The position numbers were made by a program, and so were the translations under genes. From a virus (lineage: Duplodnaviria > Caudoviricetes), in the IMG/VR virus record IMGVR_UViG_3300031867_004305, positions 1-64,000 of that record: a DNA stretch of 64,000 bases; one strand, written 5' to 3'. Below are positions 16,757 through 64,000 of this stretch, piece by piece. Below the pieces are notes generated by a model, which made no database searches, was not told the DNA's origin, and saw only the letters and a list, made by a program, of their open reading frames with translations. The first letter of the stretch is position 1, and every line of letters starts with the position of its first letter.

Positions 16757-17001
16757 GGATTGATGATATTATTCAAACTCGTGAACAGCTCAACAAAGAA
16801 TTAAAAATGGCTCTTTCCACTATGGAGCGAAAAGATACCATACAAAAAATAAAGCTTGCCATTATTGACAATCAAAAGCATTGCCCGCACACAAGCACCA
16901 AGTATAATTGGGAAATTACAAATGATACCTGCCCTTACTGCGGTTTTCATTTTAGTACCGGCGGTATTTGGAGGGAGAATATAAATGATAAAAGTTATTA
17001 A
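16753..17001 (+). CDS. Small Zn-ribbon protein
   Basis: CPH...CPYCG. Confidence 0.6.
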   Translation: MRIDDIIQTREQLNKELKMALSTMERKDTIQKIKLAIIDNQKHCPHTSTKYNWEITNDTCPYCGFHFSTGGIWRENINDKSY

Positions 17002-33100: not shown

Positions 33101-36100
33101 CGTACTAAATTACCAGTTGCCAAAGCAGAAGCAGGAATCCATTCATTACCAATTAAGAAACGGTGAATACCAGTAACTACAAGTTCTTCATCTTCAATGT
33201 GAAGAGTGTAAATATCTTCTTCAACATCGTGAATCATGGTTTGTAGAACTTCACTATATTCATTCTTTCTAGTTTCTTCATTGTAGGAGAGTACAATGTC
33301 ACCTACTTCAATATCTTCGATATTCTTAAAGCCATTACGTGTAGCAATTGGAGTACCAGCAACGAAACATCCGCCGCCTCCTCCGCCACCTTTTCCGCCT
33401 CTACCTGCAAGAGCACCAAGGTCTTTAGCAGAAGCAGTTGCTAAAGATTCCCACATAGCACGTAATTGCTTCAATGCAGATAATGCCGCGGATGCAGAAG
33501 CCATAGCTGGACCGGAAGTTCCGCCAGCAAGAGCAACAGCATTCTTTTCAGAAGTTACTGCATCTCCACGAGAAGATGAACCGTGTTTTAGAAGTTCGCG
33601 AGTCTGTAAGTGATTAAATACTATGGCGTCAGGAGCCAAATCTACGAATTCAGCACCATTCTGCCCTACAACATAATACTTACCACCAGAAACTACAAGT
33701 TCAGGTCCAAGTTCTCCAACAAGTGTTCTGCGGCCGCCAGCTAATGCGGGACCTGTGCCTTTGGAGAGGGCTACGTTGCCTTTAGCTTTAGGAGGAAATT
33801 CAAATTTTTCGATTCCTCCGCCAGTACCAGCACCAGTAGCTTTTACATTCACAGTAACATCCATTGAGAAAGACTTACTAGTAGGTATCCTATTCAACGC
33901 ATCGGCAATTCCCTTTACACGAGAAGCAACATCAGGAATCTGCTTCATAGCAGAAGCTAAATTACTTACCAAAGAACTACGACTTGGAATATCCTTTATA
34001 GCACTAGCTAGGCTCTGTACCGCGGCAGCCTTATTAGGTATCTTAGTCGCAGCGGTAGCTAAGTTCTTGACTTTTGTCGCGGCGACTGTCAAAGAAGCAC
34101 CCATACTAGCGGCAGCAGTTGATAATGCCTTAGCCGAACCTTGGGCTCCGCTAGTATCAACATTTACTGTGGTATTTTGAGTTGTATTGACTGTCTTATT
34201 TTCTGTGGTTTCGGTATCAGTATTAGTCGTACCAGATTGTTGTTGTAAAGTAACGGTAAAAGTCTGATTAGCAAATTGCTTTACAGTATCCCAAATACTT
34301 TCAACCTGAGACTTAATAACTTCCAGCATTCCAGACAAATCGGAGAAATTACTGAAAGAAGCACGGCTAATTTTTCCTACTCCCTGCTGTACTCCTAGCA
34401 AAGAAGAAGAGGTAGTAGAGAAGTCCATTCCTTGAAGTGCGGCTAAACCACTATTAGCAGTCAAATTAGTTGCCCCAACAGTAAGGTTGGAAATATTACC
34501 TTGGCCCTCAGAAATATCTTCTGTCAATGTAAGAGTACCGTCATACGTAGCATTGTTTGCACCAGTAATTTCTAGATTATCAATAGTGGAAGTAGCAGTG
34601 GGAAGATTAATATCAATTAAACCAGCGGCTGACAAAGTTTGAATGTTAGTTAAGTCAATACTATTAAGTTGCTGTCCAGCATCTAATACTTCTTGTATTT
34701 TAGCTTTATATTGTTCTAAAGTAGAAATACCATTTTCCGCACCAGAAACTTGGATTTGTACAGACAAAGAATCAAAATCAGTAACATTTTTTAGTTCAGT
34801 AGCCAGAATAGGATCGGCTTCAACTTCTGTAGTTGCACCATCTACTGAAGCAGTTTTTACTTGAATTTGAACAACTTTATTAGCTGCCCAAGTATTTACT
34901 GCGGCTTCTGCTCCATCCATATTAGCGGTAGTTGTTAAATCAACATTGGTGTCATTAGGCTCAACATCAACATTATATTTACCTACATTAGTCAAATTGC
35001 CATTTGCATCGAAACCAACGCCGTATTGTGCTAAAGTTGCTACCAAGTTAGCAGTACCATTTACAACAACAGTATTAGAGGAACCATTCTCTCCTACAAA
35101 TGTTATTTGATAAGAAGTCGCGTTTATTTTTGCATCATTAGAAGTTCCTGTTATAGAACCAATTTGACCAACATCAGGATTTTCTTCGCTTAATTTCTTG
35201 TTTGTAGCTTCTATTGTTAGTTGCTCTGAATTACCAGTTGTATTACCAACCGAGCCAACATCAACATCGCCACTATGCTCTAATTCTCCATTTTGTCCTT
35301 CATTTAAAGTAATGGTTAAAGTACCAGCGGTGCCAGTGCTATCTATTGCCCCACTAATTTTTATAGGATTACCTTCAGCTAAAGTAGCCTCTATACCAGC
35401 CGCAGTAAGTTCTAGAGAACCAGCGGTTCCTTTTGCATTTACTGCATCAGTCAAATCAATTACAGTACCATCTGATAATTTAGAAGAAGTTACTGAAGTA
35501 ATTTCTAATGTTTCAACAGTTGCTTTTGCTGTAGCTAGTGGAATTTCTGGAACATCAGCATTAAGATCTTGTTCCGCAGCTTTGGAAATATTTTCAGTAT
35601 TAAAATTAATTTTATTAGGCTTAATTGTAATTTCTGGAATTAGAATCTCTTGAGTTTCTCCTTCTGCTCCAGCAAGAGCAGTTGTCAAACCTTCTGCTAT
35701 TTTTGCACCTATTTGTGCTCCCGCTTCTCCTTCAAAAGCTTTTCCAATTCCGTCCGCAATTTTAGAAACTACTCCTTCTGGATCATAAGATTTTTCAATA
35801 TTTTCTAAAACTTTATCAGTAGTTAATTCTTCTTCAAATCCAGTGACTTCTATACCGCCTGGTATTTCTGCTGTATATTGGCCTTGTTCGTCCGGTCCTT
35901 TTTTTAAAGCTTCTGTAATTGCATTTTCAATTTCAGTTCGACGTGTTTCTTCATCTTTTTGTAAATATTCACCAATTTGTTTTTGAGTACCATTAACTGT
36001 ATTATCTGTCTGATCAGAGAACTCATATTCAACTTGTGCTGTAATACGCTTTTTGATTTTTACTTCTTCCGCTTCACGCTCAGTTTCTGATAATGCTCCT

Positions 36101-39100
36101 AATTTATCGGATTGATTTTGTAGTTCTTTTTGATAACGTTCTTCTATCAATCCATCCTTTAATTCCTTAATAGAACCATATTCTTTTCCATTAGGACCTA
36201 TATATTTTACATTACCATTTTCATCTGCTAGTACGTCTATAGTGGTTTGGCCAATAGTAAGAGTACCGTGTGATTTAATTTCAGTTTTTTTACGTTCTGT
36301 TTCATCAGTACTCATTTCAGTTTCTATATTCTCTGCTCCAGCCGCTTTTAGACTTGCTTCTGCAATAGCTTTTTTCGCAGCGGGAGAATCTGCCTTATAG
36401 GTCTGGCCATCAACTGTGATATCACCAGTTTCGGGATCAACTTCTATTAAGCCTCTAGCAACCAAAACAGATTTTACTTGAATTTCTGTAGCTTTACCTT
36501 GACTATAAGCAGTAAATGCTTCTTCTAATTCCCTTTGTAATTCTTCTTGGTTTCCTGTCAATTCTGGGTGCTCTTTCGCTACTAAAGCTAAAGCATCTGA
36601 AACTTCTTCAGATTCCCAATCTATAACATAATGAGTCTTGCCAGAAACAACCACAGAACGCTGTCCTGTTTTTATAACTGTACCATCAGGTAATGTTTGT
36701 TCTAATATATCCCAAACACTTTCGGTTACATTTTCTAAGTTATAATCACCATTCCGTGCGGCTTGATAGAAAGAATTAATTACTTTGGCATATTGTTCCT
36801 CTGTCATTCCCAAATCTTTCCAAGCATCAGCAGCATTTTCAAGTCCACTACGAGCGGCATAAATCATATCTTTTAATGACGTACCGTTTATACTAAGATG
36901 ATCTAAGGCTTTAGCTAAATCTTCATTATAATTTTCAGCTTTTGGATCATGAGTTACTTTATATATACTATCAGCCCATTCTGTATAACCCTTAGTGAAA
37001 TCACCTGCGGCATCTGTTGTACCATTAAAAATCTCACCTAAGTTTAATAATCCATCGCTGTCAACATCAATATCGCCCAGCTTCTCCATCGCAACGACGG
37101 TTTCCATCACCTGAATCGCAGCATCCAGCATAGCAATTTGACTCTCTGCCATAGCCTTGATTCCATCTTGGAAATTATCTTGCATGTTATTCGCACCGGT
37201 AACAAAATTGACGCCCAAACGACTCAAATCTACCTTAACGCCTTCACCATCTACATTAGTTAGAGCATTAGCACCTTGCTCTATTAGATAAGAAGCCATT
37301 TCAGCAGAAGAAGCAAACTTTTGACCATCTACTTCAAGCTGCCCGCTCATAGCGGCAAGATTAGACATTTCATTAACTATGTTGTAGTAATCAGTCAAAT
37401 CTATAGTACCCGCACTCGCAGCTTCATTCATAGTCTTATAAGCTTTACCTACAGAATCCCAATAATTAGCAGGGCCTTGTAGATAGTCGGGCAATTTGCC
37501 ATTCATAAAGTTATAAGAGTCGGGATCGCCTGCTTGTTTATTAGCGATTTGATTATATAAGTCTAGTTGATTCTCAAGTTCAGCATTTTGTTGACGTAAA
37601 CGCTGGGCACGAGCATCACCGGGGTCTTCCGCTTCTAATTTTCTTATCTCATACCAATTTTCACGGATTTGTTTTTGAGTCTCAGCAATGGTAGCCATAG
37701 TATCAGACATACTATCAAAGCCGCCACCCAAATCACCAGTAAGTGAATCATACAAATCATCAAAGACTAGTTGAGCTTTTAGACTATCAATCTTTTGTAG
37801 TTCTTGATATAACTCAATCGCGGACTGTTTGGTTAATTTCATTCCTTCTGCGGTTTTAGTAAACTCTAAGTTTACATTCATATCAAGACTATCAACCATT
37901 TGCTGTAAATTAAAAGCATCAGAATTACTTAGTTTTCCACTAATTCCTTTACTAATAGCGTCAACATAGGATTGTAATACGCTATCTAAAGTGTCAGCTA
38001 ACTGAGCCATATCAGACTGGAGTAGACCGCCATACTGTTGTGCGTAAGAAGCGATAGTAGAAAGAATGCCAGGTATATTAGCTTCTGAATCTAACTTTAG
38101 AATACCATCTTGTAAATGGCCACCCATACTATTGAGTATATCAATAAAATTATCAAAAGCGGGTACATCATAAGCGCCCTTGTTAACTATTTTACCCTCT
38201 AAAGCTGTTTCAAGTCGCTCACTCAACTGCGTCAAATTCAGCCAGTCTCCGCCTTTCGCATCTCCAAGAGCATTTACTTCTTCAAGAATGTTATTTTCTG
38301 CCTTACGATTCATTTCAATCAAAGAATCATTATAAGTTTTAAAAGCAGAAACATATTCTTCACTATTCGCATCCCAACCCATTAAATCAGCAAAACGAGA
38401 GAAGTCAGCAATCCGCATCTTATTGCCACCCATTAGGTCAATAATACCGGATGTTTCTAAATCATTTATCATCGTTTCAGTTAACTGAATACCAGCATCA
38501 GCTAGTATCTCACCAAAACGAGTGAAAGTCATTCCAGTAGCATCGCCTAATGCGTCTATAGCGGCTTGTTCTCCGTCACGATTTTCTAAGGCTAAAGCTG
38601 CAACCTTATTCAAATCGGCTAGAGTTGCTTCACCGGTGGCTTCTAGTCTAGTCAATAAGTTGTTATAAGCCTCATATAAATTAGCAGCTGTCTCTACAAC
38701 GTACTGTCCACTTTCGCCCAATTCATTTACTTTACCGCCGCTAAGAGCTATTATTTCAGCCGTAGCAGAATCAATGATTTCACCAGGTTTAGCTATAACA
38801 GTATCAATAGCATTAACAAAATTAGCAACCTCATTACGATATGCAGCCTCTATATCACTGTCAGAAAGAGTTGTTCCTTGTGCTTTGGCAATTTCTTCCG
38901 CAGCTTTAACTGCATTTTCTCCACCATCTTTCAAAGCGGAAATTATATTATCAGCATTTAAACCCTCAGTTTCTCCCAAAGCAAATAATACAGCATTATA
39001 ATCTTCAATAGCTTTTTGTAATTCATCTATCTTTAATGCACGAGCAGGGTCACCGTTTGCCATACCTAAGAAGCCAGTTATATCAATAGCTTCGGCAAAT

Positions 39101-42100
39101 TGCCGCTTAGTATCATTAATTAGTTGCTCCGCAGCCCAGCGCTCATCACCAGACAAAGAGTTTAATTGCTGACTTAACGATTGAACCGACGCAATTAACC
39201 CAGTAGTGCTATAAACAAATCCATGTACCGTCTCATCATATTCAAATAATGCTGATATATCAAAACTAGTGCCTAATTGCTCATTAACACTGGATACACG
39301 TTTACGCATATCTTCTATACTAGTAGTGCCTTTGCCTTGTAGAGAACTTAAACCAGTTAAAGAAGAAATAATACCATCAATTTCATTAGCTATCATTTGT
39401 TTTAATTCTTCAGTAACTTTTATTTTGCCAGTTTGAATTAATCTATCCAATTCAGCAAGATTCATTTTATAAGTGCCGTCATCTTCTTTTTTAATTAGAT
39501 TACTTATAAAATCATAAGAAGTTCCAAAAATCTCTGCTAATGTAGCTACATTTTCTTCAGTTAACTTATCACGTTTACTTACTATATCAACAAACCTAGC
39601 AGTATTATCAATTTTAGCATTAGCAGATTCTAGTTTTCCACGTAATTCAAGATACTGTTTACTAGTTTTATCCAAAGCACTATTATTTAATATGTTTAAC
39701 ATATTTTCATAACTACTTGATAATTCACCAGTAACCGTATTTACATCGAAATCTTCTAAAGATACTCCATCAATAGAACGAGCTAATTTCTGTCCAGCTT
39801 CATAACTAAAATTATCAAAAGAATCAATAACATCTTTTAGAGCATCATAAGCATTATTTTCATAATCTTTTGCTCGTGCTTGGGCAATTAAAGCGTCTAT
39901 TTCTGTAGCATTTTTGCCAGTCAAATTAGCATAATTTCGTACAAAATCTTCATATGAATCTTGCCAGTCTTTAATTGCGGCAGACATTTCATTAAATGTT
40001 GAAGATTCAATACCAGTATTAGCATAATCTGTAATATTAAAATTATCTATGCCCTTGGATAATAGATCAGATAGGAGAGTGTCAACTCCACCGCGAGCTT
40101 TTTCAACCGCGACTTTTAGTTCGGGTTGATTCGCGGCGTCATATCTTTCTGTGCCAGATAGATATTTGTTAAAGGCTTCTGTGTCGAAAGTTTCTAAAGC
40201 TGGTATGCCAGTAATTCGTGCTTGTTTTCTAGATTTTTGATTAGGCTTTTTCATGAATTGGCCATTTAACAAAGAAGAATAATCACCTTTATTCCAATTT
40301 TCTTGCTGAAATATCATAGCTTGGATTTGTTCTACGGCCATACCATAATCTTCTAGACCATTAAATATATTTTCAAATAATAATTCAATAGTTTTTTGGC
40401 CAGCTTCTGTTAATTGATTCGCTTCATTTATAAGCACTTGACCATTAGAATCTAAATATTTTTTGGTGGTTTCATCATAATTAAATCCATTCGCACTAAG
40501 GAACTCTCTCATTTCTTCAGATAATACTTCCTCAACGTCAGGAATTGAAACTTGATTATTAGAATCTAATAATCCTGCACTTTGTGCCTTCTTTAGATTT
40601 TCTTGTACTTTTTCCGCAGCTTCATTTATATGTTCTCCGTATTTTTGCTGTATTTCGTTAAATGCCTGTTCAGAAAGAATTAATTTATCACCGTTAGATA
40701 TAATATCTGAGCCAATATCTAAATCTACTCCCCAACCTTTAGCTTTATTTACTAACTCATTAGCTTCTTTCATCGTCATTCCAGAAGTAGCCTTAGAAAG
40801 TATTTTAGTATCATCTTCAGCTTTTTCTAATAGTGAGTCAAGTTCTGATTGAATAGAAAGAGCAACATTATCTACTATTCTTTGCTTACGAGCTTCTAGC
40901 TGTTTTACTGTAGATTTAATAACGCTTTGATCTGCTCCTGAAGATTCTATTGATGAAATAGCTTCTTCAATACCTTCTGTAGTATTTAAATTGGATTGAT
41001 TTAAAATGTTTATTATAGAATTACGATCAAAAGCACTTATATTATCTTGATATAAAGCATTTATTAAATTAGAAGTATTATTACTTAGCTCCCCTGCGGC
41101 CTGGACAAAACCTTGTTTTTCTAATTCATCAATTTGCTTTACCTGTGCTGAAATAAAATCTAAAGCATTAGAAGATAAATCCCTTTTTTCCAATGAAGTT
41201 TTTAATTTTCCTAATGCTGTAGGTAAAGTTTCATCAATTTTTTCACCAGACGTTGTATCATAAATTGGCTCACTATAAGTATTAAAGATGTTATTTAATC
41301 TTTCTATAGAATCTTCTGTAGAAGTATATAAATTATCTATTGCTTCATTTATTGCTTTATTTGATTCGTCCAAATTTAATTCTTTTTTAACATCGTTTGC
41401 TGTAAAAGCGGAAGTATCATTTCCTATTTTTTCTAATATATCTTTTTGTTCTTTATTTAAATCATTATAGCCTTTATAATACTCATTTAAAGCATTTTTA
41501 AAATCATCTGTTTCTTTAAATTGTTCCCAAGTTTTATTATTATTTTTATCCTGTCCCCAAATAGAAGATAATTGTCGAGTAAGTAATAAAGCCCCTTGAG
41601 TATTTTCATTTAAAAACTTCCAATTTTCTTCTAAAGATTTATCAAGTAATAAATAAGAAGAAACAACTGAATTACGTAGCCCAGCATTTTCACCTGATAA
41701 ATTAGCTAATTCAACATTCAATTTATTTAATTGAGAGACATCAAAATTCTTATTAATTAATTCTTTAGTTTCTTCAGATAACGAATTATATGCTTCTAAA
41801 AATTCATTTAATTTTTGTTGTCCAAATTCAGAATTAAAATCATAATTATCTAAATGATTAATGAAATCTTTTACTATCGCTTGTGAAGTTTCAAGGCTTT
41901 GTTCAGTAGAAAAATCAGATGATAAAAGTAAATTGGCAAGTTCATTTAGCCCTTGTAATGAATCAGGAATCTTTTTTCCTGCTTCATTATAAGCTTGAAT
42001 TGACTTGTTAATTTCAGTAGAAAAAGAAGATATGTCTTTTATTTGGTCTAAATCTATTTTAGCCCCAGATCTTTCTACTATATCACGTAAATAATCCGCG

Positions 42101-45100
42101 GATGTATCTTGATTTAAAATACCTTCTAAATATTGTCCTACTTCATCAAAATTTAAAAATCCGCCCATAGCATTTCTTAACATGCCATACGCTCGATCTG
42201 CTAGACGTGTACTATTAGCAGTATCATCAAAAGAAAAACTATTATCAGTAATTTCGCCAGAACGATTATTAAGATTTTTAATTTCATTTGCAGTTGTCAA
42301 CATTTTTTGTTGATTTGCTTTTTGTTCACCTACAGCAGCATCATATGTAGCTTGTAGCGTTTTTTGACGTGCAGCCGCTAACATTTCCTCAGCATTTGCA
42401 GTTTCTATAATTATATTACCGCTACTATCAAAACCGCTAATTAATTGGGGAAAAGAATCTGCTAAATCATCAACTGCTTTTTGATATTCTTCAGCTGCTT
42501 CAGCACTTTCATACCTTTTTTCTTTTAATTCATTTACTTTATCTATACCAGTTTGTAAAGTTTTTTCATCTGCTTTAACTTGCTTTGCTGTATTAGAAAG
42601 TTCTTCCGCTTCTTTATTCAAACGCTCTAATTTTTCTTGAGGCGTCTCAATTGCCGTGGCAATTCCATTTATAGCTGTAATAGCTGCCATAGCTACTGTT
42701 ACCCAAGGGAATGGGCCTTTAGTTTCCATAGCTTTCATTACAGAAGATATACCTTTTATAGCTCCGCTTACAAACATTAAAGATCCTGCGAATATTCTAC
42801 TAGAATCTGTAGATTTATCCATAACATTAGCTACAATATTAAGAGCAGAACTAAAATCTAATAAACTATCATAAATCTTTTGGTTTTTAATTTGAGTTAA
42901 AGAACCAGCAAACTCTTTATTTGCTATAGCTAATTCTTTAATTTTTTCTAATGCTTTTTCTGGTCCCTCATTAGCTAATTCTCTTAAAGATTTAGCTTCC
43001 TCATCTGTTATCGCTTTTAAATCTTGTAATCTAGTAATAGCATTTGATATTACTTGAGGATTTATAATTTCACCATTAGAATCTCTCTTAAAAACAATGG
43101 TTTTTGATATATCAGAAAGATCATTTAAACGCTGTTTTGTAACTTCAATTTCTCTATTTATTTCAGAAAAAGAAGAAGAAGTACTTAGACCTTGCCGTAA
43201 TCCTTCATTAAAATCGTTACCAGCTTTTTGCCCTTTTCCTCTTAAATCCAAACTCTCTACATGTCCATCTAAATGACTCTTAAACTGCGTAGCAATAGCA
43301 GATAAACCATTTAATGCTACTGTTTTAATCAAAGAAATAGCATCAGCAATAACAGTCGCAGCACCAATAGGAATCTTTCCAAATAACTTCGGTAAACCAT
43401 TTAATGTATTAATAAAATTAGTAGTACCATCTAAGAGTCCTTTCCATAAATCTTCAGCGCCCAAAGTAGTATAAAACTGCTGATACGCAACTTGTACCTG
43501 ATTCAACTTAGACTCAATAGAATCCAAAGCCTTCAAAGCTTGTAAAGTACCAACATCTTCACTATCATTCGCAACTTCTAGGTTTTCACGCAATAAATCA
43601 CCGTTACTTACCAAAGCTAAGAAACGAGACTGCTGTCTATTACCAGCAAACTGTGTAGCAACATATCTCTGCTGTACTGAACTTAATTGATCCCATACGT
43701 CAGATAATTCAAGAATAACATCAGTAAAGTCTCTAAACTGTCCTTCAGTATCCTTCATAGAAATACCAACAGACTGTAATGCAGAATCTACTTTATTGAA
43801 AGCCATAACCTCGCCTTCAGCATCTACTAAAGTCAGAGGATCTTTGGTTAATTCACCATAACGGCTCGCAATTGACTTCATAGCAGAACCAATATTATTC
43901 GCAGATTCACGAGTAACAGCTACCATAGTAGCGATCATCGCAGAAGTTTCTTCAAATGTAGAACCTACAGATTCCATAGAAGAAGCTGTCCTTGTCATAG
44001 CTTCTGCCAATTCTTGCTGACTTACAGCTGTATTCGCGGCTAAATTAGAATAAACATCTACAACCGTAGAAGCCTCAGACATTTCCATTTTAAAACCACG
44101 AATGGCGGTTGTCATATAGTCAGTAGTTGTAGCATAATCTAATCCAGAAATCTTAGATAACTTTAATGTTTCATTTGTTAAATTTAAAACATCATTAGTT
44201 TCCAAACCTTGCTGATAGTAAATACGAGAAACTTCATAAGCACCTTTAATGGTAACACCATAATTCTGTGCCATAGCACTATAGGCATCTACTTGCTTCC
44301 ATAAATCAGCAGTAGTCATATCAGTAACTATAGCAATACCATTCATTACACTATCAAGTTCTTTGATATGATTCATCGCATCTCGTATAGCGGTTTTAGT
44401 TAAATTTAAAATCTGATTAAATCCCATAAAATTAGTAATAGCCATTTTTATGGAATTAAATGTTTGCTGTTGCTGCTGTAAACGCATAAAAGCAGCACTA
44501 GCTTGATCTAGTTGATTAGCAAATCCTTGTAATTGTCCTTGCATAGCACTTATGCTACCAACAAAAGCACTATTTGCACTTACATTCTGAACTGCTTCTC
44601 CACGTAATATTGCCAATGCTTGTGCAACACGCTCAATTTCTGCGTTATAATCTGACATTCCTTGACTTAAAGGAGTGCCATTAGCTTTCGCAGCATTCAT
44701 TTTATTATATAGATCTTCTACAGCTTTTTGTAAATTTTCATATTCCGCTACTTTTTGTTTAGCACCAGTTAAGTCTGAGCTATTCTTTTTAAAAGATTCA
44801 TCTAAATTTTTAAAAATATCATTAAAATTGCCCTTTTTAAACGCTTCATTAATTTTACCAAAACTTAGTTTTTGTAATGTAGCTATATCAGCATCGCTTA
44901 CTTCAAATTGTTCTTTTAATATTCGTAAAAATTCTTGTTTTCCACCTGACTTAAATCCAGTACCAGCTTTATTAAGCATTTCTCCCCAATCTTGTTGAGT
45001 AATGCCATTACTTAATAAATTTTTAGCTTTTCCAGTTGCTGTAGCTTGCTCAGTAACTGTATTATTTAATTCATCAAATTTAGCTTTAGCGTTTATTAAG

Positions 45101-45609
45101 TCTCCTTCAACTTTTTTAGTACCATTAGCAACAATAGCATCTATTTCATCAAAAGTTTTTCTTATACCATTTTTATCAAGTCTCTCTAAAGTAAGTACTG
45201 ACGCTGAATCTGCGAAAATACCTTGCTTAGTTTTTTCTTTAATACTATCTAATCTTTGCTCTGCTGTTACTATAGCTTGTTCTAAATCATTAAATGCTTT
45301 AGTCTGATTAGAATCAAGTTTAATATCAGAAAACTTTAAATTACCCATAGCTATTTGGGCTTTCATTAAAGTTTCTTCCATTTTCTCTATAGAACGTTCA
45401 GCTTGATCAAATTGTTTTCCAGAAGTAAATCCTTTAGAAGTTTGAACTTGAAATTTCTCCATTTCACGAGTCATTTCATTTATTATTTTAGATAAACCTT
45501 TAAATCCAGAACTATCTGGTTCTAAATGACTCAAAACTTTTTGCAATTCTGCTAAAGATGATTGCATAACATTTAATTTTACGCCAACATCTACAGTAAT
45601 TTGCGCCAT
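30133..45609 (-). CDS. Tape measure protein, 5158 aa, with internal Hint domain
   Basis: TP901-type core (ELDSVM...YYQQG...ESANNIGSAMKSIASR...FRDFTDVILEL...AGNRQQSRF), VGELGPE motif, C-terminal GGLADYTGPAWVDG..KPE motif, long coiled coils. Confidence 0.92.
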   Translation of the reverse strand: MAQITVDVGVKLNVMQSSLAELQKVLSHLEPDSSGFKGLSKIINEMTREMEKFQVQTSKGFTSGKQFDQAERSIEKMEETLMKAQIAMGNLKFSDIKLDSNQTKAFNDLEQAIVTAEQRLDSIKEKTKQGIFADSASVLTLERLDKNGIRKTFDEIDAIVANGTKKVEGDLINAKAKFDELNNTVTEQATATGKAKNLLSNGITQQDWGEMLNKAGTGFKSGGKQEFLRILKEQFEVSDADIATLQKLSFGKINEAFKKGNFNDIFKNLDESFKKNSSDLTGAKQKVAEYENLQKAVEDLYNKMNAAKANGTPLSQGMSDYNAEIERVAQALAILRGEAVQNVSANSAFVGSISAMQGQLQGFANQLDQASAAFMRLQQQQQTFNSIKMAITNFMGFNQILNLTKTAIRDAMNHIKELDSVMNGIAIVTDMTTADLWKQVDAYSAMAQNYGVTIKGAYEVSRIYYQQGLETNDVLNLTNETLKLSKISGLDYATTTDYMTTAIRGFKMEMSEASTVVDVYSNLAANTAVSQQELAEAMTRTASSMESVGSTFEETSAMIATMVAVTRESANNIGSAMKSIASRYGELTKDPLTLVDAEGEVMAFNKVDSALQSVGISMKDTEGQFRDFTDVILELSDVWDQLSSVQQRYVATQFAGNRQQSRFLALVSNGDLLRENLEVANDSEDVGTLQALKALDSIESKLNQVQVAYQQFYTTLGAEDLWKGLLDGTTNFINTLNGLPKLFGKIPIGAATVIADAISLIKTVALNGLSAIATQFKSHLDGHVESLDLRGKGQKAGNDFNEGLRQGLSTSSSFSEINREIEVTKQRLNDLSDISKTIVFKRDSNGEIINPQVISNAITRLQDLKAITDEEAKSLRELANEGPEKALEKIKELAIANKEFAGSLTQIKNQKIYDSLLDFSSALNIVANVMDKSTDSSRIFAGSLMFVSGAIKGISSVMKAMETKGPFPWVTVAMAAITAINGIATAIETPQEKLERLNKEAEELSNTAKQVKADEKTLQTGIDKVNELKEKRYESAEAAEEYQKAVDDLADSFPQLISGFDSSGNIIIETANAEEMLAAARQKTLQATYDAAVGEQKANQQKMLTTANEIKNLNNRSGEITDNSFSFDDTANSTRLADRAYGMLRNAMGGFLNFDEVGQYLEGILNQDTSADYLRDIVERSGAKIDLDQIKDISSFSTEINKSIQAYNEAGKKIPDSLQGLNELANLLLSSDFSTEQSLETSQAIVKDFINHLDNYDFNSEFGQQKLNEFLEAYNSLSEETKELINKNFDVSQLNKLNVELANLSGENAGLRNSVVSSYLLLDKSLEENWKFLNENTQGALLLTRQLSSIWGQDKNNNKTWEQFKETDDFKNALNEYYKGYNDLNKEQKDILEKIGNDTSAFTANDVKKELNLDESNKAINEAIDNLYTSTEDSIERLNNIFNTYSEPIYDTTSGEKIDETLPTALGKLKTSLEKRDLSSNALDFISAQVKQIDELEKQGFVQAAGELSNNTSNLINALYQDNISAFDRNSIINILNQSNLNTTEGIEEAISSIESSGADQSVIKSTVKQLEARKQRIVDNVALSIQSELDSLLEKAEDDTKILSKATSGMTMKEANELVNKAKGWGVDLDIGSDIISNGDKLILSEQAFNEIQQKYGEHINEAAEKVQENLKKAQSAGLLDSNNQVSIPDVEEVLSEEMREFLSANGFNYDETTKKYLDSNGQVLINEANQLTEAGQKTIELLFENIFNGLEDYGMAVEQIQAMIFQQENWNKGDYSSLLNGQFMKKPNQKSRKQARITGIPALETFDTEAFNKYLSGTERYDAANQPELKVAVEKARGGVDTLLSDLLSKGIDNFNITDYANTGIESSTFNEMSAAIKDWQDSYEDFVRNYANLTGKNATEIDALIAQARAKDYENNAYDALKDVIDSFDNFSYEAGQKLARSIDGVSLEDFDVNTVTGELSSSYENMLNILNNSALDKTSKQYLELRGKLESANAKIDNTARFVDIVSKRDKLTEENVATLAEIFGTSYDFISNLIKKEDDGTYKMNLAELDRLIQTGKIKVTEELKQMIANEIDGIISSLTGLSSLQGKGTTSIEDMRKRVSSVNEQLGTSFDISALFEYDETVHGFVYSTTGLIASVQSLSQQLNSLSGDERWAAEQLINDTKRQFAEAIDITGFLGMANGDPARALKIDELQKAIEDYNAVLFALGETEGLNADNIISALKDGGENAVKAAEEIAKAQGTTLSDSDIEAAYRNEVANFVNAIDTVIAKPGEIIDSATAEIIALSGGKVNELGESGQYVVETAANLYEAYNNLLTRLEATGEATLADLNKVAALALENRDGEQAAIDALGDATGMTFTRFGEILADAGIQLTETMINDLETSGIIDLMGGNKMRIADFSRFADLMGWDANSEEYVSAFKTYNDSLIEMNRKAENNILEEVNALGDAKGGDWLNLTQLSERLETALEGKIVNKGAYDVPAFDNFIDILNSMGGHLQDGILKLDSEANIPGILSTIASYAQQYGGLLQSDMAQLADTLDSVLQSYVDAISKGISGKLSNSDAFNLQQMVDSLDMNVNLEFTKTAEGMKLTKQSAIELYQELQKIDSLKAQLVFDDLYDSLTGDLGGGFDSMSDTMATIAETQKQIRENWYEIRKLEAEDPGDARAQRLRQQNAELENQLDLYNQIANKQAGDPDSYNFMNGKLPDYLQGPANYWDSVGKAYKTMNEAASAGTIDLTDYYNIVNEMSNLAAMSGQLEVDGQKFASSAEMASYLIEQGANALTNVDGEGVKVDLSRLGVNFVTGANNMQDNFQDGIKAMAESQIAMLDAAIQVMETVVAMEKLGDIDVDSDGLLNLGEIFNGTTDAAGDFTKGYTEWADSIYKVTHDPKAENYNEDLAKALDHLSINGTSLKDMIYAARSGLENAADAWKDLGMTEEQYAKVINSFYQAARNGDYNLENVTESVWDILEQTLPDGTVIKTGQRSVVVSGKTHYVIDWESEEVSDALALVAKEHPELTGNQEELQRELEEAFTAYSQGKATEIQVKSVLVARGLIEVDPETGDITVDGQTYKADSPAAKKAIAEASLKAAGAENIETEMSTDETERKKTEIKSHGTLTIGQTTIDVLADENGNVKYIGPNGKEYGSIKELKDGLIEERYQKELQNQSDKLGALSETEREAEEVKIKKRITAQVEYEFSDQTDNTVNGTQKQIGEYLQKDEETRRTEIENAITEALKKGPDEQGQYTAEIPGGIEVTGFEEELTTDKVLENIEKSYDPEGVVSKIADGIGKAFEGEAGAQIGAKIAEGLTTALAGAEGETQEILIPEITIKPNKINFNTENISKAAEQDLNADVPEIPLATAKATVETLEITSVTSSKLSDGTVIDLTDAVNAKGTAGSLELTAAGIEATLAEGNPIKISGAIDSTGTAGTLTITLNEGQNGELEHSGDVDVGSVGNTTGNSEQLTIEATNKKLSEENPDVGQIGSITGTSNDAKINATSYQITFVGENGSSNTVVVNGTANLVATLAQYGVGFDANGNLTNVGKYNVDVEPNDTNVDLTTTANMDGAEAAVNTWAANKVVQIQVKTASVDGATTEVEADPILATELKNVTDFDSLSVQIQVSGAENGISTLEQYKAKIQEVLDAGQQLNSIDLTNIQTLSAAGLIDINLPTATSTIDNLEITGANNATYDGTLTLTEDISEGQGNISNLTVGATNLTANSGLAALQGMDFSTTSSSLLGVQQGVGKISRASFSNFSDLSGMLEVIKSQVESIWDTVKQFANQTFTVTLQQQSGTTNTDTETTENKTVNTTQNTTVNVDTSGAQGSAKALSTAAASMGASLTVAATKVKNLATAATKIPNKAAAVQSLASAIKDIPSRSSLVSNLASAMKQIPDVASRVKGIADALNRIPTSKSFSMDVTVNVKATGAGTGGGIEKFEFPPKAKGNVALSKGTGPALAGGRRTLVGELGPELVVSGGKYYVVGQNGAEFVDLAPDAIVFNHLQTRELLKHGSSSRGDAVTSEKNAVALAGGTSGPAMASASAALSALKQLRAMWESLATASAKDLGALAGRGGKGGGGGGGCFVAGTPIATRNGFKNIEDIEVGDIVLSYNEETRKNEYSEVLQTMIHDVEEDIYTLHIEDEELVVTGIHRFLIGNEWIPASALATGNLVRFADGTLHAISEIDIEEMAIRVYNFEVSNNHNYYVGNNSILAHNKGGGGGGGGGADDNGENRAVTAEIQRWYNLTRQIAKAEKDITYQQALRSKYQSDFVVNGDKIYATYQKELAILRKEVRNQKELVELQKSWYDAKRKELEASDYGKIFTYDENGLQQYVGSGAPGSGRGLDILEKLNERDVNGQPINNAKSARAQLKYLRSVGFNLSDLLYNDDGTKAAKSINQNTLAVKKNNSKDKKNDIYVKMMENFWNNIDGWRDELDNLYDSYNDTLTNIEENQTKQNEILQELRDNELDIEQELLKAIESRQQALIDEKTELKDALKDASDAYISGLSEALDKERKQYEQNQGKDELTKLQRQLAILQRSGGSASQIRSLQEQISGKQRDVYFDERQGQIDAIQEASDKEIEALEREIDIMTETLEYQKENGLLWKDVRDIMANESAQSAWDKILAWDSEMKSKSALDIDKTATEFMDKFDTFAAKRDEDKAWKEDKTGIDTSQDESKYSKLASDSTALKAARDNAMSAAEGAYRTTLEDGGTREEAKRAAQKAYDDTMASESEKYNRTENDRINQEKINERNGLYKTAQGQAALDDWNKIVENAKYQKNSFVYNKNYPEYADEVEEKFVREMMGNYDEDGKWIGGDKEEAAKTATASATEILKEENAFGEEQSDGSRKGIYMTTKGVTSYTIKKSKVKTSKSFGKNVPITLTGKTKTIKKKGKDILYLQGKVDGKTKYFLANDFEDATQDIHAADATAAIDTSADKTNISLADKEPITYSLKKGVPKGHGVGGKENPIDLKAKSKLQIDGARATFDKKGNVKKVTKIRIKSVNGQDLVESDEINLSKFNSKDRKGILKKIQAQKYGKQAAFFYKQGGLADYTGPAWVDGTPKKPEAFLNAAQTQFVRNDLLGNSKTSLVSIVSALQDAISNTATSPITNNSNAVSIDNVNLTIESGVIANDYDARRAGSNITDEILKIAKKSGNLGISRR
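32971..33369 (-). other. Hint / bacterial intein-like domain (133 aa, TMP residues 4081-4213)
   Basis: Starts CFVAGTPI, block B VTGIHRF, ends VYNFEV..HNYYV....LAHN; +1 residue is Lys; no endonuclease domain; poly-Gly on both sides. Confidence 0.9.
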
Positions 45610-60012: not shown

Positions 60013-60041
60013 AGTTTAGCATATTTTGAGGATTTTGTCAA
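60013..60041 (-). promoter_or_regulatory. SigA-type promoter at the head of the morphogenesis arm
   Basis: TTGACA-17 bp-TAAACT with TG. Confidence 0.7.
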
Positions 60042-60104
60042 GTGTTTGGGTTTTAAAATTGGGCGGGATGGAATTTCAGGCCGGGTGTGGAATTTGGGCA
60101 GCCC

Positions 60105-60132
60105 TTAACATAAACTTAACATAAACTTAACA
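60105..60132 (+). repeat. Triple TTAACA direct repeat with 11-bp period
   Basis: TTAACA-TAAAC-TTAACA-TAAAC-TTAACA; another pair at 60228-60244. Confidence 0.9.
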
Positions 60133-60170
60133 TTTTCCTTAAATATAGCCCCGGGGTCGGCCGGGCGAGT

Positions 60171-60517
60171 CACTTTAGTCTGCTAAAGTGGTGTCGTGGC
60201 ATCACTTTACTATAGTAAAGTGACAATTTAACATAAATTTAACATTTTAATATCACACTTTAGCATATTAAAGCATGAAATTCTACCGCAGGGGTAGGAT
60301 TATTTCATATTCAAAAAACCCAGTAGTATGGTGGTATTTTATTTTATCAACGGCACACACGATAACCACCTGGCCCATCGTTTTAGTAGGAAAAGATGGT
60401 AGGGGCCCACTTTAGCATACTAAAGTGCTAAAGTGCTAAATCCTACTGTTTGGCAAGACTTTCATATAGTAAAGTGCTAAATCCTACCGTGAGAATACAC
60501 TTTCATATACTAAAGCG
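60171..60517. repeat. Cluster of six CACTTTA-N6-TAAAGTG palindromes (motif A)
   Basis: Copies at 60171, 60203, 60256, 60408, 60457 and 60498, each with 0-2 mismatches. Confidence 0.9.
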
Positions 60518-60523
60518 AGGGCT

Positions 60524-60964
60524 TTACGCCCTCGCCATCGCTTTTGCTATTGTGGTTTCATTCGCAAGACTTGCGGATTCAAATTTGATTTGGTATTTTG
60601 TACCGTTGATGGTGATATCGCCGTCGATGTAGTAGGGGATGGAATCTTTGTGCCACTCTTGCCCGGCGTTTTCGGTGATCCACTGTTCGAACGCTTCGCC
60701 TTTATTCTTCCGGCTTGCGAGGACTTCCGAGGCGGTACCGATGTAGGCGGCACCCATGTTAATCAGGCGGTGGCGGGCGATGGTGTTCATCCGAATGCGA
60801 AGCTTGCGAGCACCACCGTGGGAAGTGCTTTCCCTGTCCATGCCAACCAGCCACTCAGGCAGGTCGTTCAGGTAGATGGTGTAAACCTTGTCATTCATCA
60901 GGAAGCCGATGATGTAGGCCATCGCGGCGGTAGTGGCTTTGTAGGCGTTCAGCAGGTTCATCAT
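60524..60964 (-). CDS. Cassette protein, 146 aa, with a PD-(D/E)XK-like C-terminal motif
   Basis: GAGAGG RBS; NKGEAFE...DGD......YQIK; own promoter at 60999-61027. Confidence 0.75.
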   Translation of the reverse strand: MMNLLNAYKATTAAMAYIIGFLMNDKVYTIYLNDLPEWLVGMDRESTSHGGARKLRIRMNTIARHRLINMGAAYIGTASEVLASRKNKGEAFEQWITENAGQEWHKDSIPYYIDGDITINGTKYQIKFESASLANETTIAKAMARA

Positions 60965-61063
60965 GGTGGTTACCTCTCTTTCGTTGCTTTCTAGGTATAT
61001 TATACACCTTGACCGGGCAGATGTCAATAAGGTTTATGTTAACTGTGTGTTAAAGGTTGAGGC

Positions 61064-61231
61064 TTACGCCTCAACCTTCCAGTCGTGGCGGATGCGCTCC
61101 AGCGGCCACCCATCACGGTCGATGGTGTGCTCCCACACGTTGCCATTCTCATCAAGGTAGGCGATGTGCGTCAGGGTGATCGGCCAACCGTCGCGGTCGA
61201 TGGTGTGCTCGTAGGCGGTGATCTTCTTCAT
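61064..61231 (-). CDS. Cassette protein, 55 aa, with duplicated EHTIDRDGWP
   Basis: GAGAGG RBS, own promoter, hairpin overlapping the stop. Confidence 0.8.
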   Translation of the reverse strand: MKKITAYEHTIDRDGWPITLTHIAYLDENGNVWEHTIDRDGWPLERIRHDWKVEA

Positions 61232-61462
61232 TTTGTAGCACCTCTCTCTCATTTCTTGACTATATTATAGCACACTGGAATAGCAATGTCAATAGGTTTT
61301 TTGCGAATTAACAGACGCTTAACAATCGACGTCCGCAGGTCCAGGTCTTGGTTAGTCATACCTAACTCGTGCCTTCACTCCTCCCTGTCCTTCCTTTCCG
61401 GTGCAACTATATTATAGCAAAAAAGAAGGCTTTTGTCAAGCCCTCTTTGTGTTAAGTTGATA

Positions 61463-61627
61463 TTAAAGAATACCAGTTATTTTTGCCACCAGCGGAGACA
61501 AGATCAGCATTAACAGACCAGCGATCATGCCCCAATTTACCAACCAATGAGGATCATCAGCATGGGCGATGCCCACAAAGCAAGCAACTACAGCAATTAT
61601 CACATACACAGGAAGAATCCACATCAT
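61463..61627 (-). CDS. Cassette protein, 54 aa, two predicted TM helices (absent from the ORF track)
   Basis: MMWILPVYVIIAVVACFVGIAHADDPHWLVNWGMIAGLLMLILSPLVAKITGIL; AAGGAG RBS and own promoter. Confidence 0.8.
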   Translation of the reverse strand: MMWILPVYVIIAVVACFVGIAHADDPHWLVNWGMIAGLLMLILSPLVAKITGIL

Positions 61628-61833
61628 TGTTTTTCTCTCCTTTTTTTTCTCTCTTTCGTTGACACTATTATAGCATATAGCCGGGCGTTTGTCAATACTT
61701 TTTTATGTAAAGTATGTGTAAACTTCTCCGCCGGTCAAATATGATTAGTTAGTGAAAACTAACTCCACTGGCCGAGTTAGTTCAGACTAACTAACTCTCT
61801 AATATAAAAAATAAAGGGTTTGCACCCTTTATT

Positions 61834-62124
61834 TTAGAAATTGAAATTATCAATTGTACCACAATAGCGACAGGAAACAATCACATCGTCGTAAATAATT
61901 TCCGTGTTATTATCATCCATCAGACAAGCACACAAGTCATTAACATTCCAGTCCTCACAGCCGTAAAACTGCCAAATGTTCCCGTTCGCGTCAACCACGT
62001 CCACCAAATCAGTAGAATAGTCAACATTGACAACCTTAGTAACCATTGCGTAATCCTCAGCGAGAGCATTAACACCAACCACCATCAGCACGACCACCAT
62101 CAGCATCATAATCGTGTTCTTCAT
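61834..62124 (-). CDS. Cassette protein, 96 aa, with Sec signal peptide and acidic Cys-containing mature part
   Basis: MKN-hydrophobic-ALA|ED; AAGGAG RBS; terminator at about 61805-61833. Confidence 0.85.
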   Translation of the reverse strand: MKNTIMMLMVVVLMVVGVNALAEDYAMVTKVVNVDYSTDLVDVVDANGNIWQFYGCEDWNVNDLCACLMDDNNTEIIYDDVIVSCRYCGTIDNFNF

Positions 62125-62285
62125 TGTTGTTTATCTCCTTTGCTTTTGTTGTATATAGTATAACACACATCTATTCACTTGTCAATACCTTTTTGTGTTT
62201 TCTTTTGTAAAATCTATATTAAGCGTCTGGCCGGCCAGAAAGTTAGTTTAGACTAACTAACTGATCCAATAAAAAAAGATGGGGA

Positions 62286-62444
62286 TTATTCATCCCCATC
62301 AATCCAGCCCATCGCAAACTCATAGGCGATCTCAATGATCGTGTAATCGTTCGCGCGCTCGCACTCATTGAAGAAGTAGATCGTGGCAGGGTGTTCGAAA
62401 CCGAAAGCGCGAATCACGTTGTTTTTCATCTCATTGATCTTCAT
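62286..62444 (-). CDS. Cassette protein, 52 aa (absent from the ORF track)
   Basis: MKINEMKNNVIRAFGFEHPATIYFFNECERANDYTIIEIAYEFAMGWIDGDE; AAGGAGG RBS, promoter and terminator. Confidence 0.85.
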   Translation of the reverse strand: MKINEMKNNVIRAFGFEHPATIYFFNECERANDYTIIEIAYEFAMGWIDGDE

Positions 62445-62539
62445 TATGGGTTCCTCCTTGCTTTTGATGTAATTATTTTACCACACGCCAAGACCTTTGT
62501 CAAGAGGTTTTGAAAAAATTTTTTTGTTAAGATTCGGGA

Positions 62540-62710
62540 CTACTCGATGTAGTCCCGAACCTCGTCGTTCGTCAGGTCCAGTTCCTCAGCGATGACTTCC
62601 ACCGCCTCATCGATCCAGAACAACTGTTCCTCAGCGGTCAGGTCCTCCCACGCGCCCATCAGATTCTCGTTGATGTAGGCATCCATCATGGTATTGATCT
62701 TGTTAGTCAT
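62540..62710 (-). CDS. Cassette protein, 56 aa, highly acidic (absent from the ORF track)
   Basis: MTNKINTMMDAYINENLMGAWEDLTAEEQLFWIDEAVEVIAEELDLTNDEVRDYIE; AAGGAGG RBS, promoter and hairpin. Confidence 0.85.
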   Translation of the reverse strand: MTNKINTMMDAYINENLMGAWEDLTAEEQLFWIDEAVEVIAEELDLTNDEVRDYIE

Positions 62711-62884
62711 TGTGGTGTCCTCCTTGCTTTTGTTGTATTCATTATAACACCTATCCGGCTATTTGTCAATACCTTTTTTGTATTTTTCTTTGTAAAGTTT
62801 GTGTTAAGCCTCCGGCCGGCCCGCGCGAGTTAGTTTATGCTAACTAACTATTATATTAATAAAAAAAGAGGGCTTAAACCCTCT

Positions 62885-63031
62885 TTATGCTACATACCCT
62901 TCGATCATTGCGGCTACTTCATGTGCCCACATATAATCATTGTATGCGCCATAGAACCATTTTTCTCCATCAACAACACGGTAAACGATAAAGCGATAAT
63001 TGGTAGCGTAGGCAGGCATGTTGTTAATCAT
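62885..63031 (-). CDS. Cassette protein, 48 aa, paralog of 63202-63318 (absent from the ORF track)
   Basis: MINNMPAYATNYRFIVYRVVDGEKWFYGAYNDYMWAHEVAAMIEGYVA; GAGAGG RBS, promoter and terminator. Confidence 0.85.
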   Translation of the reverse strand: MINNMPAYATNYRFIVYRVVDGEKWFYGAYNDYMWAHEVAAMIEGYVA

Positions 63032-63201
63032 TTTGATTACCTCTCTCATTTGATGTATATATTATAGCATAAAGTATCGAGAATGTCAATACCCTTTTAA
63101 AAAATTTCTTTGTAAAATCTAAGTTAATGATCTGGCCGGCCAGAAAGTTAGTTATAACTAACTAACTATTAAAATATATAAAAAAGAAGGCTTTTCAGCC
63201 T

Positions 63202-63318
63202 TCAAGCAACTTTTCCGCCCACCATAGCAGCATATTCTTTAGCCCACTGCAGATCATCAAAAGCACCGTAAAAATACTTGATGCCCTTTTCCTCAACGTA
63301 TACGATGAACTTCTTCAT
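63202..63318 (-). CDS. Cassette protein, 38 aa, paralog of 62885-63031 (absent from the ORF track)
   Basis: MKKFIVYVEEKGIKYFYGAFDDLQWAKEYAAMVGGKVA; AAGGAGG RBS, promoter and terminator. Confidence 0.85.
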   Translation of the reverse strand: MKKFIVYVEEKGIKYFYGAFDDLQWAKEYAAMVGGKVA

Positions 63319-63489
63319 TGTTGTTTCCTCCTTGCTTTTGATGTATTTATTATAACATGCCTTTGTTATTTTGTCAATACCTTTTTGTGTTAATTGTGTA
63401 TTAACTTATTTATTTCCAGGATCGTGATTAGTTTAATTAAACTAACCGCTTTTCTGGCCTGCATAATGGGCCAGAACTTATTGATTCAT

Positions 63490-63629
63490 TACTTTATCAT
63501 AGTAAAGTGATTCAAATTTGCCCTACAGGCCAATTTTAGCGGGCCAGGCAACCGGCCGGTTTATTATTCGCGCGAAATCGCCTTAAAACGAAAATTTGAA
63601 TCACACTATCACTTTACCATAATAAAGTG
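63490..63629. repeat. Two further motif A palindromes on the right flank of the array
   Basis: TACTTTA-TCATAG-TAAAGTG at 63490 and CACTTTA-CCATAA-TAAAGTG at 63610. Confidence 0.85.
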
Positions 63630-64000
63630 ATAAATATAATGAACTGGCCGGACCAGTTAGTTTTGACTAACTAACTATTACAAAAATATTACAGCTTTAT
63701 GCGACTTTCTTTTGTGAGGGCGTTTTTAAGGGGTAAAACAACCGGCCGGTTTATTATACACGAAAAAAACGGCTCTACGCGGCGATACGAAAAAAATGCA
63801 CAAAAAGTTAAACCGAAATATTAATTCCAGGTTAAGAAACACTCTACGAAAACGATTTCCGCAGGCCAAATTAACATATCCATAACACTTTTTCTTAATC
63901 TTTTGTGCAATTTTTTTCAGTCGTAGGCCACGGGCATTTTGAACAAAAATTAAATATGAAATACTTTTGTAATAATTAAATAGTTTTGTAATAATCACTG

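Follow-up and report, generated by a model that had tools for sequence, protein, structure and literature searches.

A probable promoter-early stem-loop (PeSL)-like cassette array in the divergent early region of an uncultured phage

Organization of the cassette array

The 64,000-nucleotide stretch of DNA analysed here (the window) comprises bases 1–64000 of a single 181,042-bp record of an uncultured phage (IMGVR_UViG_3300031867_004305), which is 100% complete according to CheckV. At window positions 60515–63480, the minus strand contains an array of nine co-oriented promoter units (units A–I). Eight units contain a small open reading frame (ORF) of 38–146 amino acids (aa), the exception being the non-coding unit G. 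The array forms the left arm of a ∼29-kb divergent early region (60–89 kb of the genome). The arm probably belongs to a PeSL-like hyperplastic early region that is reshuffled by homologous recombination between repeated regulatory frames. For comparison, 36 IMG/VR loci (L001 and so on) were fetched as relatives through the anchor gene, which is located just downstream of the arm (53–95% aa identity). The arm consists of the following features, where dN and dS denote nonsynonymous and synonymous substitution rates.

63349–63377, minus: unit A promoter (TTGACA-17-TATAAT, TG-extended), 12/12 match
63202–63318, minus: unit A ORF, 38 aa, paralog of unit B; 100% aa identity and dS 0.34 versus L001
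63186–63203, minus: unit A intrinsic terminator
63146–63163: AGTTAG-N6-CTAACT palindrome upstream of unit B, 5′ edge of the repeated scaffold
63131–63144: TCTGGCCGGCCAGA palindrome (GGCCGGCC core) upstream of unit B
63061–63089, minus: unit B promoter, 12/12 match
62885–63031, minus: unit B ORF, 48 aa, A/B family; dN/dS 0.08
62865–62886, minus: unit B terminator
62828–62845: AGTTAG palindrome upstream of unit C
62814–62821: GGCCGGCC upstream of unit C
62741–62769, minus: unit C promoter, 12/12 match
62540–62710, minus: unit C ORF, 56 aa, very acidic ORFan; database copies near-identical only
62475–62503, minus: unit D promoter (−10 TAAAAT), 11/12 match
62286–62444, minus: unit D ORF, 52 aa, acidic tail; orthologs in L001, L003 and L007 with dN/dS 0.09–0.20
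62278–62300, minus: unit D terminator
62241–62258: AGTTAG palindrome upstream of unit E
62226–62239: TCTGGCCGGCCAGA palindrome upstream of unit E
62157–62185, minus: unit E promoter (−10 TATACT), 11/12 match
61834–62124, minus: unit E ORF, 96 aa, Cys-rich with a hydrophobic N-terminus; homologs in the opposite arm of relatives
61808–61835, minus: unit E terminator
61747–61792: two AGTTAG palindromes upstream of unit F
61667–61695, minus: unit F promoter, 12/12 match
61463–61627, minus: unit F ORF, 54 aa, hydrophobic and membrane-like; dN/dS 0.10–0.13; right-arm paralog at genome 66213–66386
61422–61448, minus: unit F terminator, loop containing the unit G −35 box
61411–61439, minus: unit G promoter, 12/12 match
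61293–61404, minus: unit G purine-rich non-coding transcript (predicted) with an AGTTAG-type palindrome and no terminator
61264–61292, minus: unit H promoter (alpha frame); the frame precedes four different ORFs among relatives
61064–61231, minus: unit H ORF, 55 aa, internal repeat; within a 265-bp promoter-to-promoter insertion relative to L003
60999–61027, minus: unit I promoter (beta frame), 12/12 match; 97% identical to L003
60524–60964, minus: unit I ORF, 146 aa, conserved anchor-proximal member; invariant E93, D116 and K127 and near-invariant Q125
60515–60535, minus: hairpin closing unit I
63425–63672: distal arm edge leading into the non-coding centre, with a degenerate TTAGTTTAATTAAACTAA palindrome and a CTGGCC-loop-GGCCAG hairpin
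63425–63672: further palindromes of the distal arm edge, ACTTTA-N6-TAAAGT (CACTTTA form at 63610) and AGTTAG at 63655

The −35 boxes of the nine promoters start at positions 63377, 63089, 62769, 62503, 62185, 61695, 61439, 61292 and 61027 on the minus strand. Seven promoters agree with TTGACA-17-TATAAT at all 12 positions, the other two deviate at one position, and a TG dinucleotide precedes the −10 box in eight of the nine. The exact pattern was found nine times in the window against an expectation of 0.05, and the nine co-oriented units of the original prediction, which had been made from the sequence before this analysis, are confirmed. In most units, an A/T-rich AAAAAGGTA or AAAAACCTA string adjoins the −35 box. 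Downstream of each promoter lies a ∼30-nt leader that includes a strong Shine-Dalgarno (SD) sequence and, in four of the nine units, ends in CAAAAGCAAGGAGG or a close variant. Intrinsic terminators are predicted after units A, B, D, E and F, and weaker hairpins with poorer T-runs are located after units C, H and I. The overlap between units F and G is very compact, as the loop of the unit F terminator holds the −35 hexamer of unit G and its T-run serves as the promoter spacer.

The elements upstream of the promoters are also in strong excess over chance. The AGTTAG-N6-CTAACT palindrome occurs six times in the window against 0.01 expected, always within 61747–63672, and GGCCGGCC occurs three times against 0.14 expected. 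A 23-nt string is identical at 62226 and 63131, as had been noted previously. The complete series of terminator, AGTTAG palindrome, GGCCGGCC, TTAACA boxes and promoter is found at only three junctions; the AGTTAG palindrome is present at about five of the nine junctions and GGCCGGCC at three. The proposed grammar of repeated cis-elements is therefore real in its elements, but its full set is confined to a subset of the units.

The idea of a self-contained array is not supported; the array is not free-standing, and its signals cluster at 60–89 kb on divergent strands. Genome-wide, 31 of the 35 TTGACA-17-TAWAMT sites are located at 60.0–88.9 kb, on the minus strand to the left of ∼64 kb and on the plus strand for 23 of the 26 sites to the right of it. 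The AGTTAG palindromes (12) and GGCCGGCC sites (10) of the genome are, without exception, confined to the same region. Between the two arms lies a non-coding centre (63.4–64.6 kb) packed with CATAGTAAAGTG-type iterons of an 8-bp period. The centre (window 63400–64000 and genome 64001–64650) is a candidate origin of replication or regulatory hub. The CATAGTAAAGTG-type iterons, with periods of 8, 16 and 24 bp, span ∼280 bp (genome 64035–64315), and three AGTTAG palindromes (genome 64331, 64355 and 64484) and AACCGGCCGGTT palindromes are also observed in the centre.

The cargo ORFs appear to be real genes, because dN/dS values of 0–0.22 were obtained at dS values of 0.3–2 for the orthologs of units A, B, D, F and I; these five families are thus under purifying selection. 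Units A and B are paralogous (E 1e-7), as the original prediction had claimed for one pair of ORFs. Pfam and PHROG scans of all nine frames yielded nothing significant (PHROG E<0.01), and host-takeover or anti-defence roles stay a conjecture because no cargo matches a Pfam or PHROG family. An ESM Atlas search with units I and E returned viral hypothetical proteins only. The A/B family and units D and F are common to some relatives, and unit C is an ORFan. Outside this phage, unit H was found only in L040, where it has a different promoter and is separated from unit G by two extra cassettes. Cargo also moves between the arms, since homologs of unit E are located on the opposite strand (in the opposite arm) in seven relatives and unit F has a paralog in the right arm of the same genome.

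The assignment of one ORF to each unit was borne out for eight units but failed for unit G, whose 36-aa frame is lost in relatives. This frame was rejected as a gene; its ATG lies within the palindrome loop and is absent in relatives. The conserved part of unit G consists of a purine-rich (GGA/GGAG-rich) 5′ segment and an AGTTAG-type palindrome, and its conservation extends to relatives with as little as 60% identity in the anchor gene. Unit G is always followed directly by the final one or two cassettes of the arm. It lacks a terminator, so its transcript would read into unit H. A structured RNA was also considered for unit G and rejected, as only the palindrome hairpin was predicted and no convincing covariation was observed. 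A second ORF-less, promoter-driven element of ∼77 nt (GAGAGGAAAGGACGG...CGCGG-loop-CCGCG) is found in the left arms of L001, L003, L007 and L010 (e.g. L001:5490-5600). In the relatives, it is located directly upstream of another promoter, and none was seen in the present arm.

Cassette turnover among related phages

The number of units in the arm is nine in this phage and ranges from 0 to ∼20 across the 36 loci. The arm contains ∼20 units in L001, whose anchor gene product is 95% identical, 9–15 units in L003, L007, L010 and L030, and 2–4 units in L015, L020 and L024. No units were found in L002, L005, L006, L009, L014, L017–L019, L021 and L025–L028. In the examined relatives without an arm (L006 type), its place is taken by a GC-rich operon on the opposite strand. 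In every arm, the anchor-proximal position is occupied by unit I, usually with unit G before it.

Promoter-leader frames and cargo ORFs assort independently. In between-phage pairs whose promoter and leader are at least 85% identical, the ORFs are different and unrelated in 24 of 46 cases. In pairs that share the same ORF, the promoter and leader are less than 70% identical in 51 of 87 cases. The alpha frame drives unit H in the present phage, a 133-aa ORF in L001, a 51-aa ORF in L024 and unit I in L007, L015 and L020. Its spacer and leader bases are near-identical among these phages, although no promoter consensus demands them. The shared scaffold with mostly unrelated cargo that had been noted within the array extends to comparisons between phages.

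The boundaries of exchange were mapped using homology blocks (≥80% identity, ≥80 nt) among nine arms. The right ends of the blocks fall between positions −5 and +20 of the ATG in 42 of 97 cases (5.9% of the sequence), and the left ends fall directly after stop codons or in promoter-upstream frames in 96 of 103 cases (37% of the sequence). The 5′ edge of the AGTTAG palindrome accounts for 11 of the 103 left ends, against 1.6% expected. ORF bodies occupy 41% of the sequence and contain only 9 of the 200 block ends of either kind. These positions indicate that the repeat spans from the AGTTAG palindrome to the ATG and that the ORF moves as cargo together with its own terminator. Relatives thus differ in cassette number and content, with homology breaks in the scaffold, so the structural part of the original prediction passed the test that had been put forward for it.

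Individual rearrangements were resolved at the base level. The cassette order is G-alpha-H-beta-I in the present phage, G-beta-I in L003 and G-alpha-I in L007. Compared with L003, the present arm contains a 265-bp promoter-to-promoter insert flanked by repeated CCT(T)ATTGACAT. Compared with L007, the join lies within a shared GAGAGAGGT SD stretch. The mapped junctions are therefore located at the −35/upstream (UP) region and at the SD/ATG region, and a role of the palindromes themselves as the recombination sites is not supported.

Exchange mechanism and alternative explanations

These data are best explained by a PeSL-like early region, a reading that we consider likely. Each unit would be an autonomous transcription unit with an A-tract by the −35 box, TTGACA, a 17-bp spacer, a TG-extended TATAAT, a leader, an ORF and its own terminator, and the promoters would be of the maximal host sigma-A/sigma-70 type. 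A frame of ∼150 nt, consisting of the AGTTAG palindrome, GGCCGGCC, TTAACA-type direct repeats, promoter and leader up to the ATG, would constitute the dispersed repeat; its copies are 70–97% identical. General homologous recombination between frame copies, within one genome or between co-infecting relatives, would move, delete, insert or replace the ORF-plus-terminator cargo and would leave genes and their expression signals unbroken. The exchange could be carried out by a Sak4-like protein or by host functions. Members of the AAA_24/Sak4 family are phage recombination proteins, and one AAA_24 (Sak4-like) gene is located at window 4411–5415 on the plus strand (E 7e-48). It was the sole hit among the five recombination-type families searched; Phage_integrase (PF00589), Resolvase (PF00239), RecA and RecT gave no match in the complete genome. 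The anatomy of the units, its excess over chance, the turnover of cassettes among relatives, the junctions within the frames and the purifying selection on the cargo are observed in the sequences, whereas we infer early timing, transcription by host RNA polymerase, exchange through homologous recombination and a cargo that acts on the host.

Several points weigh against this explanation. Early expression and crossovers are predictions from the sequence of an uncultured phage. The block-end statistics overstate independence because the frames are repeats, so that many short blocks end at the cargo by construction. The similarity of the frames could stem partly from selection on promoter and ribosome-binding function rather than from recombination. 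The coding status of unit C rests on its frame and signals alone, as the databases hold only near-identical copies, and the host (see below) is deduced solely from the style of the promoters and SD sequences and from Bacillota phages with related portals.

The AGTTAG palindrome and the unit I protein allow a second explanation. In a survey of 24 non-redundant related early regions (249 kb), AGTTAG (65 sites) and its 4-nt-shifted reading TTAGTT (66 sites) were by far the commonest perfect 6-N6-6 palindromes, followed by ACTTTA-N6-TAAAGT (27 sites). The loop is A/T-rich but variable. The arms almost never covary, with 6 compensated and 50 uncompensated variants, so AGTTAG-N6-CTAACT behaves as a putative sequence-specific protein site rather than a hairpin, and it may be an operator for a phage protein. 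Three whole genomes with an I-family gene contain 12, 12 and 14 perfect AGTTAG sites, and three complete relatives without the gene contain none. The association between sites and gene is perfect across 19 loci and agrees in four of four independent contrasts, although four contrasts are too few for significance (sign test floor p 0.125). Triplets of AGTTAG sites adjoin an I paralog in L001 and L030. In L029 (L029:4050-4700; IMGVR_UViG_3300028048_000059, record positions 16804–17435), twelve AGTTAG palindromes are arranged in tandem with a 45-bp period and occupy the central place that the CATAGTAAAGTG iterons hold in the present phage.

The I family is large, with at least 482 clusters at 50% identity, and the present genome contains only one I-family gene. 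The first ORF of the right arm (genome 64661–65128) was considered as an I paralog and rejected (hhalign probability 0.9%). Among 112 family sequences, E93, D116 and K127 are invariant and Q125 is near-invariant. A first AF2 model from nine sequences was poor, with a predicted local distance difference test (pLDDT) score of 63, and a deep alignment gave a model with a pLDDT of 97.9. In the latter model, the conserved residues are located on a helix (residues 88–99) and two strands (residues 117–119 and 122–128), and this E...D...QxK arrangement of helix, strand and strand resembles that of PD-(D/E)xK enzymes and may be nuclease-like. The earlier description of the 146-aa ORF as nuclease-like is accordingly matched by its motif but not by any family or fold. 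Foldseek searches of the Protein Data Bank (PDB) and BFVD and a VIA-wide search found no matching fold (Foldseek E>0.08; VIA best Z 2.3), a profile search of PDB sequences yielded nothing, and a Pfam scan of the 112 members yielded nothing consistent. A confident model with a best structural match of Z 2.3 may reflect either an unusual fold or a search artefact.

In this second explanation, the unit I protein would be a sequence-specific nuclease or DNA-binding protein for AGTTAG-N6-CTAACT that cuts or marks junctions and stimulates exchange. The gene-site association, the uncompensated arms, the position of the site at the 5′ edge of the repeated frame, the site triplets beside I paralogs and the active-site-like placement of the conserved residues in the model all point in this direction. 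However, the I gene and the AGTTAG sites belong to a single physically linked module, and their association could be due to co-inheritance alone. The putative nuclease has no fold or family match, the palindrome is absent from about half of the junctions, and the base-level junctions at the −35 and SD/ATG regions are outside the palindrome. Moreover, the phage would have to protect its own genome at twelve cut sites. We consider such a dedicated system unlikely. There is a similarly small chance that the I-family protein and the AGTTAG sites form a dedicated pair, in which an undescribed, widespread nuclease-like protein recognises cassette-edge sites as an integrase-free device that marks or cuts junctions and drives early-gene reshuffling (or joint switch-off).

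A third explanation is purely regulatory. The palindromes and the 11-bp-phased TTAACA/TGTTAA repeats would serve as operators, bound either by a phage regulator or by an OmpR-family regulator of the host such as WalR, and the cassette differences would arise from ordinary deletion or illegitimate recombination without involvement of the frames. The TTAACA-type boxes fit the WalR consensus TGTWAH-N5-TGTWAH (PMC9210968). This motif occurs 25 times in the genome, with 24 copies at 60–89 kb (0.4 expected) and one in the remaining 152 kb. The boxes are located at fixed offsets of −27, −38 or −32 from the −35 box, and GGCCGGCC is located at −52 or −41, positions that differ by one helical turn. A search for a phage-encoded winged helix of the OmpR type that could bind the direct repeats detected none; the tie of the boxes to a host response regulator is a lead rather than a result. 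However, the strict box is found at just 7 of 33 promoters (∼18% across relatives), and its fixed offsets may reflect the common descent of the frames. Illegitimate recombination is disfavoured because it predicts neither the occurrence of identical frames before unrelated ORFs, where even the non-consensus bases of spacer and leader agree, nor the inserts flanked by repeated frame sequence. A regulatory role without frame-mediated exchange is therefore improbable as a full account.

An integron-like site-specific system with palindromes as attC-like sites is very improbable: the array resembles an integron as a row of single-gene cassettes of variable content parted by imperfectly conserved inverted repeats, but the complete genome lacks a tyrosine or serine recombinase or integrase, the cassettes do not share a promoter but each have one of their own, and many junctions have no palindrome or lie beyond the inverted repeat.

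Genomic surroundings and relation to known systems

Packaging and structural genes are located downstream of the arm in the order of a gene labelled sigma factor by PHROG, a weakly terminase-like gene, the portal gene and others. The first of these is the anchor gene, in which no Pfam sigma domain was found and whose sigma factor label comes from PHROG only. The portal protein exhibits 24–30% sequence identity and matches only phages of Enterococcus, Lactococcus, Bacillus and their relatives. These portal relatives, the extended −10 promoters and the AAGGAGG ribosome sites jointly suggest that the host is probably a Bacillota (Firmicutes) bacterium. No match to the region was obtained by blastn among 50,697 phage records, and an Rfam scan of 59.9–64.0 kb gave nothing above threshold.

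A gene-free stretch of 480 bp (window 60040–60515) separates unit I from the anchor gene and is ∼78% conserved in relatives. This stretch could contain a small RNA or a control region of the anchor gene. It contains CACTTTA-N6-TAAAGTG palindromes at 60171, 60203 and 60408, 11-bp-phased TGTTAA triplets (60105–60136 and 60228–60244) and a terminator-like hairpin near 60279–60301. Elsewhere in the window, a single ORF of 5158 aa occupies positions 30133–45609 on the minus strand in the structural region.

PeSL cassettes are known from T4-type phages, where they occur in hyperplastic regions (Arbiol et al. 2010, PMC2839356; Comeau et al. 2014, PMC4122927). According to these papers, a PeSL is a repeat of ∼100 bp in which a promoter of the sigma-70 consensus with A/T-rich sequence upstream is combined with a stem-loop, an SD sequence and an ATG. 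PeSLs cluster beside ORFans and bound indels between relatives, and homologous recombination between them was proposed. The present region shares strong early promoters that fit the sigma-70 consensus and have A/T-rich sequence upstream, and the predicted stem-loop terminator, SD sequence and start codon are next to small ORFans in a variable region. Indels and replacements among relatives are bounded by repeats, and a dedicated recombinase is absent. The overlap of the unit F terminator with the −35 box of unit G corresponds to a described PeSL subclass. The region possesses every sequence-testable PeSL feature in an unrelated phage lineage.

The region also differs from PeSL regions in several respects. 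The lineage is not the T4 superfamily, as the portal protein is ∼30% identical to those of phages of Enterococcus, Lactococcus and Bacillus, and the host is probably of Gram-positive type. Because the portal matches Bacillota phages only, the region would work like a PeSL region and yet lie outside the defining lineage. The terminators belong to the cargo rather than to the repeat, and the repeat additionally contains AGTTAG-N6-CTAACT, the GGCCGGCC palindrome and 11-bp-phased TTAACA repeats. Moreover, the units are arranged in two divergent arms around an iteron-rich centre.

The host-takeover module of SPO1 comprises small early genes with promoters and ribosome-binding sites of the highly expressed type (Stewart et al. 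1998, as summarised in PMC6873191). In terms of that summary, the two systems share a cluster of small early genes behind strong host-type promoters and ribosome-binding sites, and SPO1 is also a large phage, with a Gram-positive host. The SPO1 genes are arranged in operons within the terminal redundancy, whereas nearly every gene of the present array has its own unit, and cassette exchange is not part of the module as summarised in PMC6873191. The present cargo has no PHROG match at E<0.01, so no homology to SPO1 gp37-60 was found.

The array is also similar to the morons of lambdoid and other phages, which are reportedly autonomous promoter-gene-terminator inserts (an observation attributed to Juhala and colleagues in 2000), in that self-contained promoter-gene-terminator units lie between other genes. 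Morons are isolated and have unrelated signals, whereas the present array is built from one repeated frame.

The PeSL-like reading of the arm would extend the principle that regulatory repeats double as recombination handles beyond the T4-type phages of Gram-negative hosts, to a large clade of uncultured 160–185-kb phages with Gram-positive-style signals. Under this principle, accessory early genes would be exchangeable without loss of expression. The arm would be a natural catalogue of small, fast-turnover early genes that are predicted to be strongly expressed, the class in which host-takeover and anti-defence functions usually occur. It also offers ready-made maximal promoters and insulated expression frames, as well as two candidate DNA-protein pairs, AGTTAG-N6-CTAACT with the I family and the WalR-type boxes with a host regulator.

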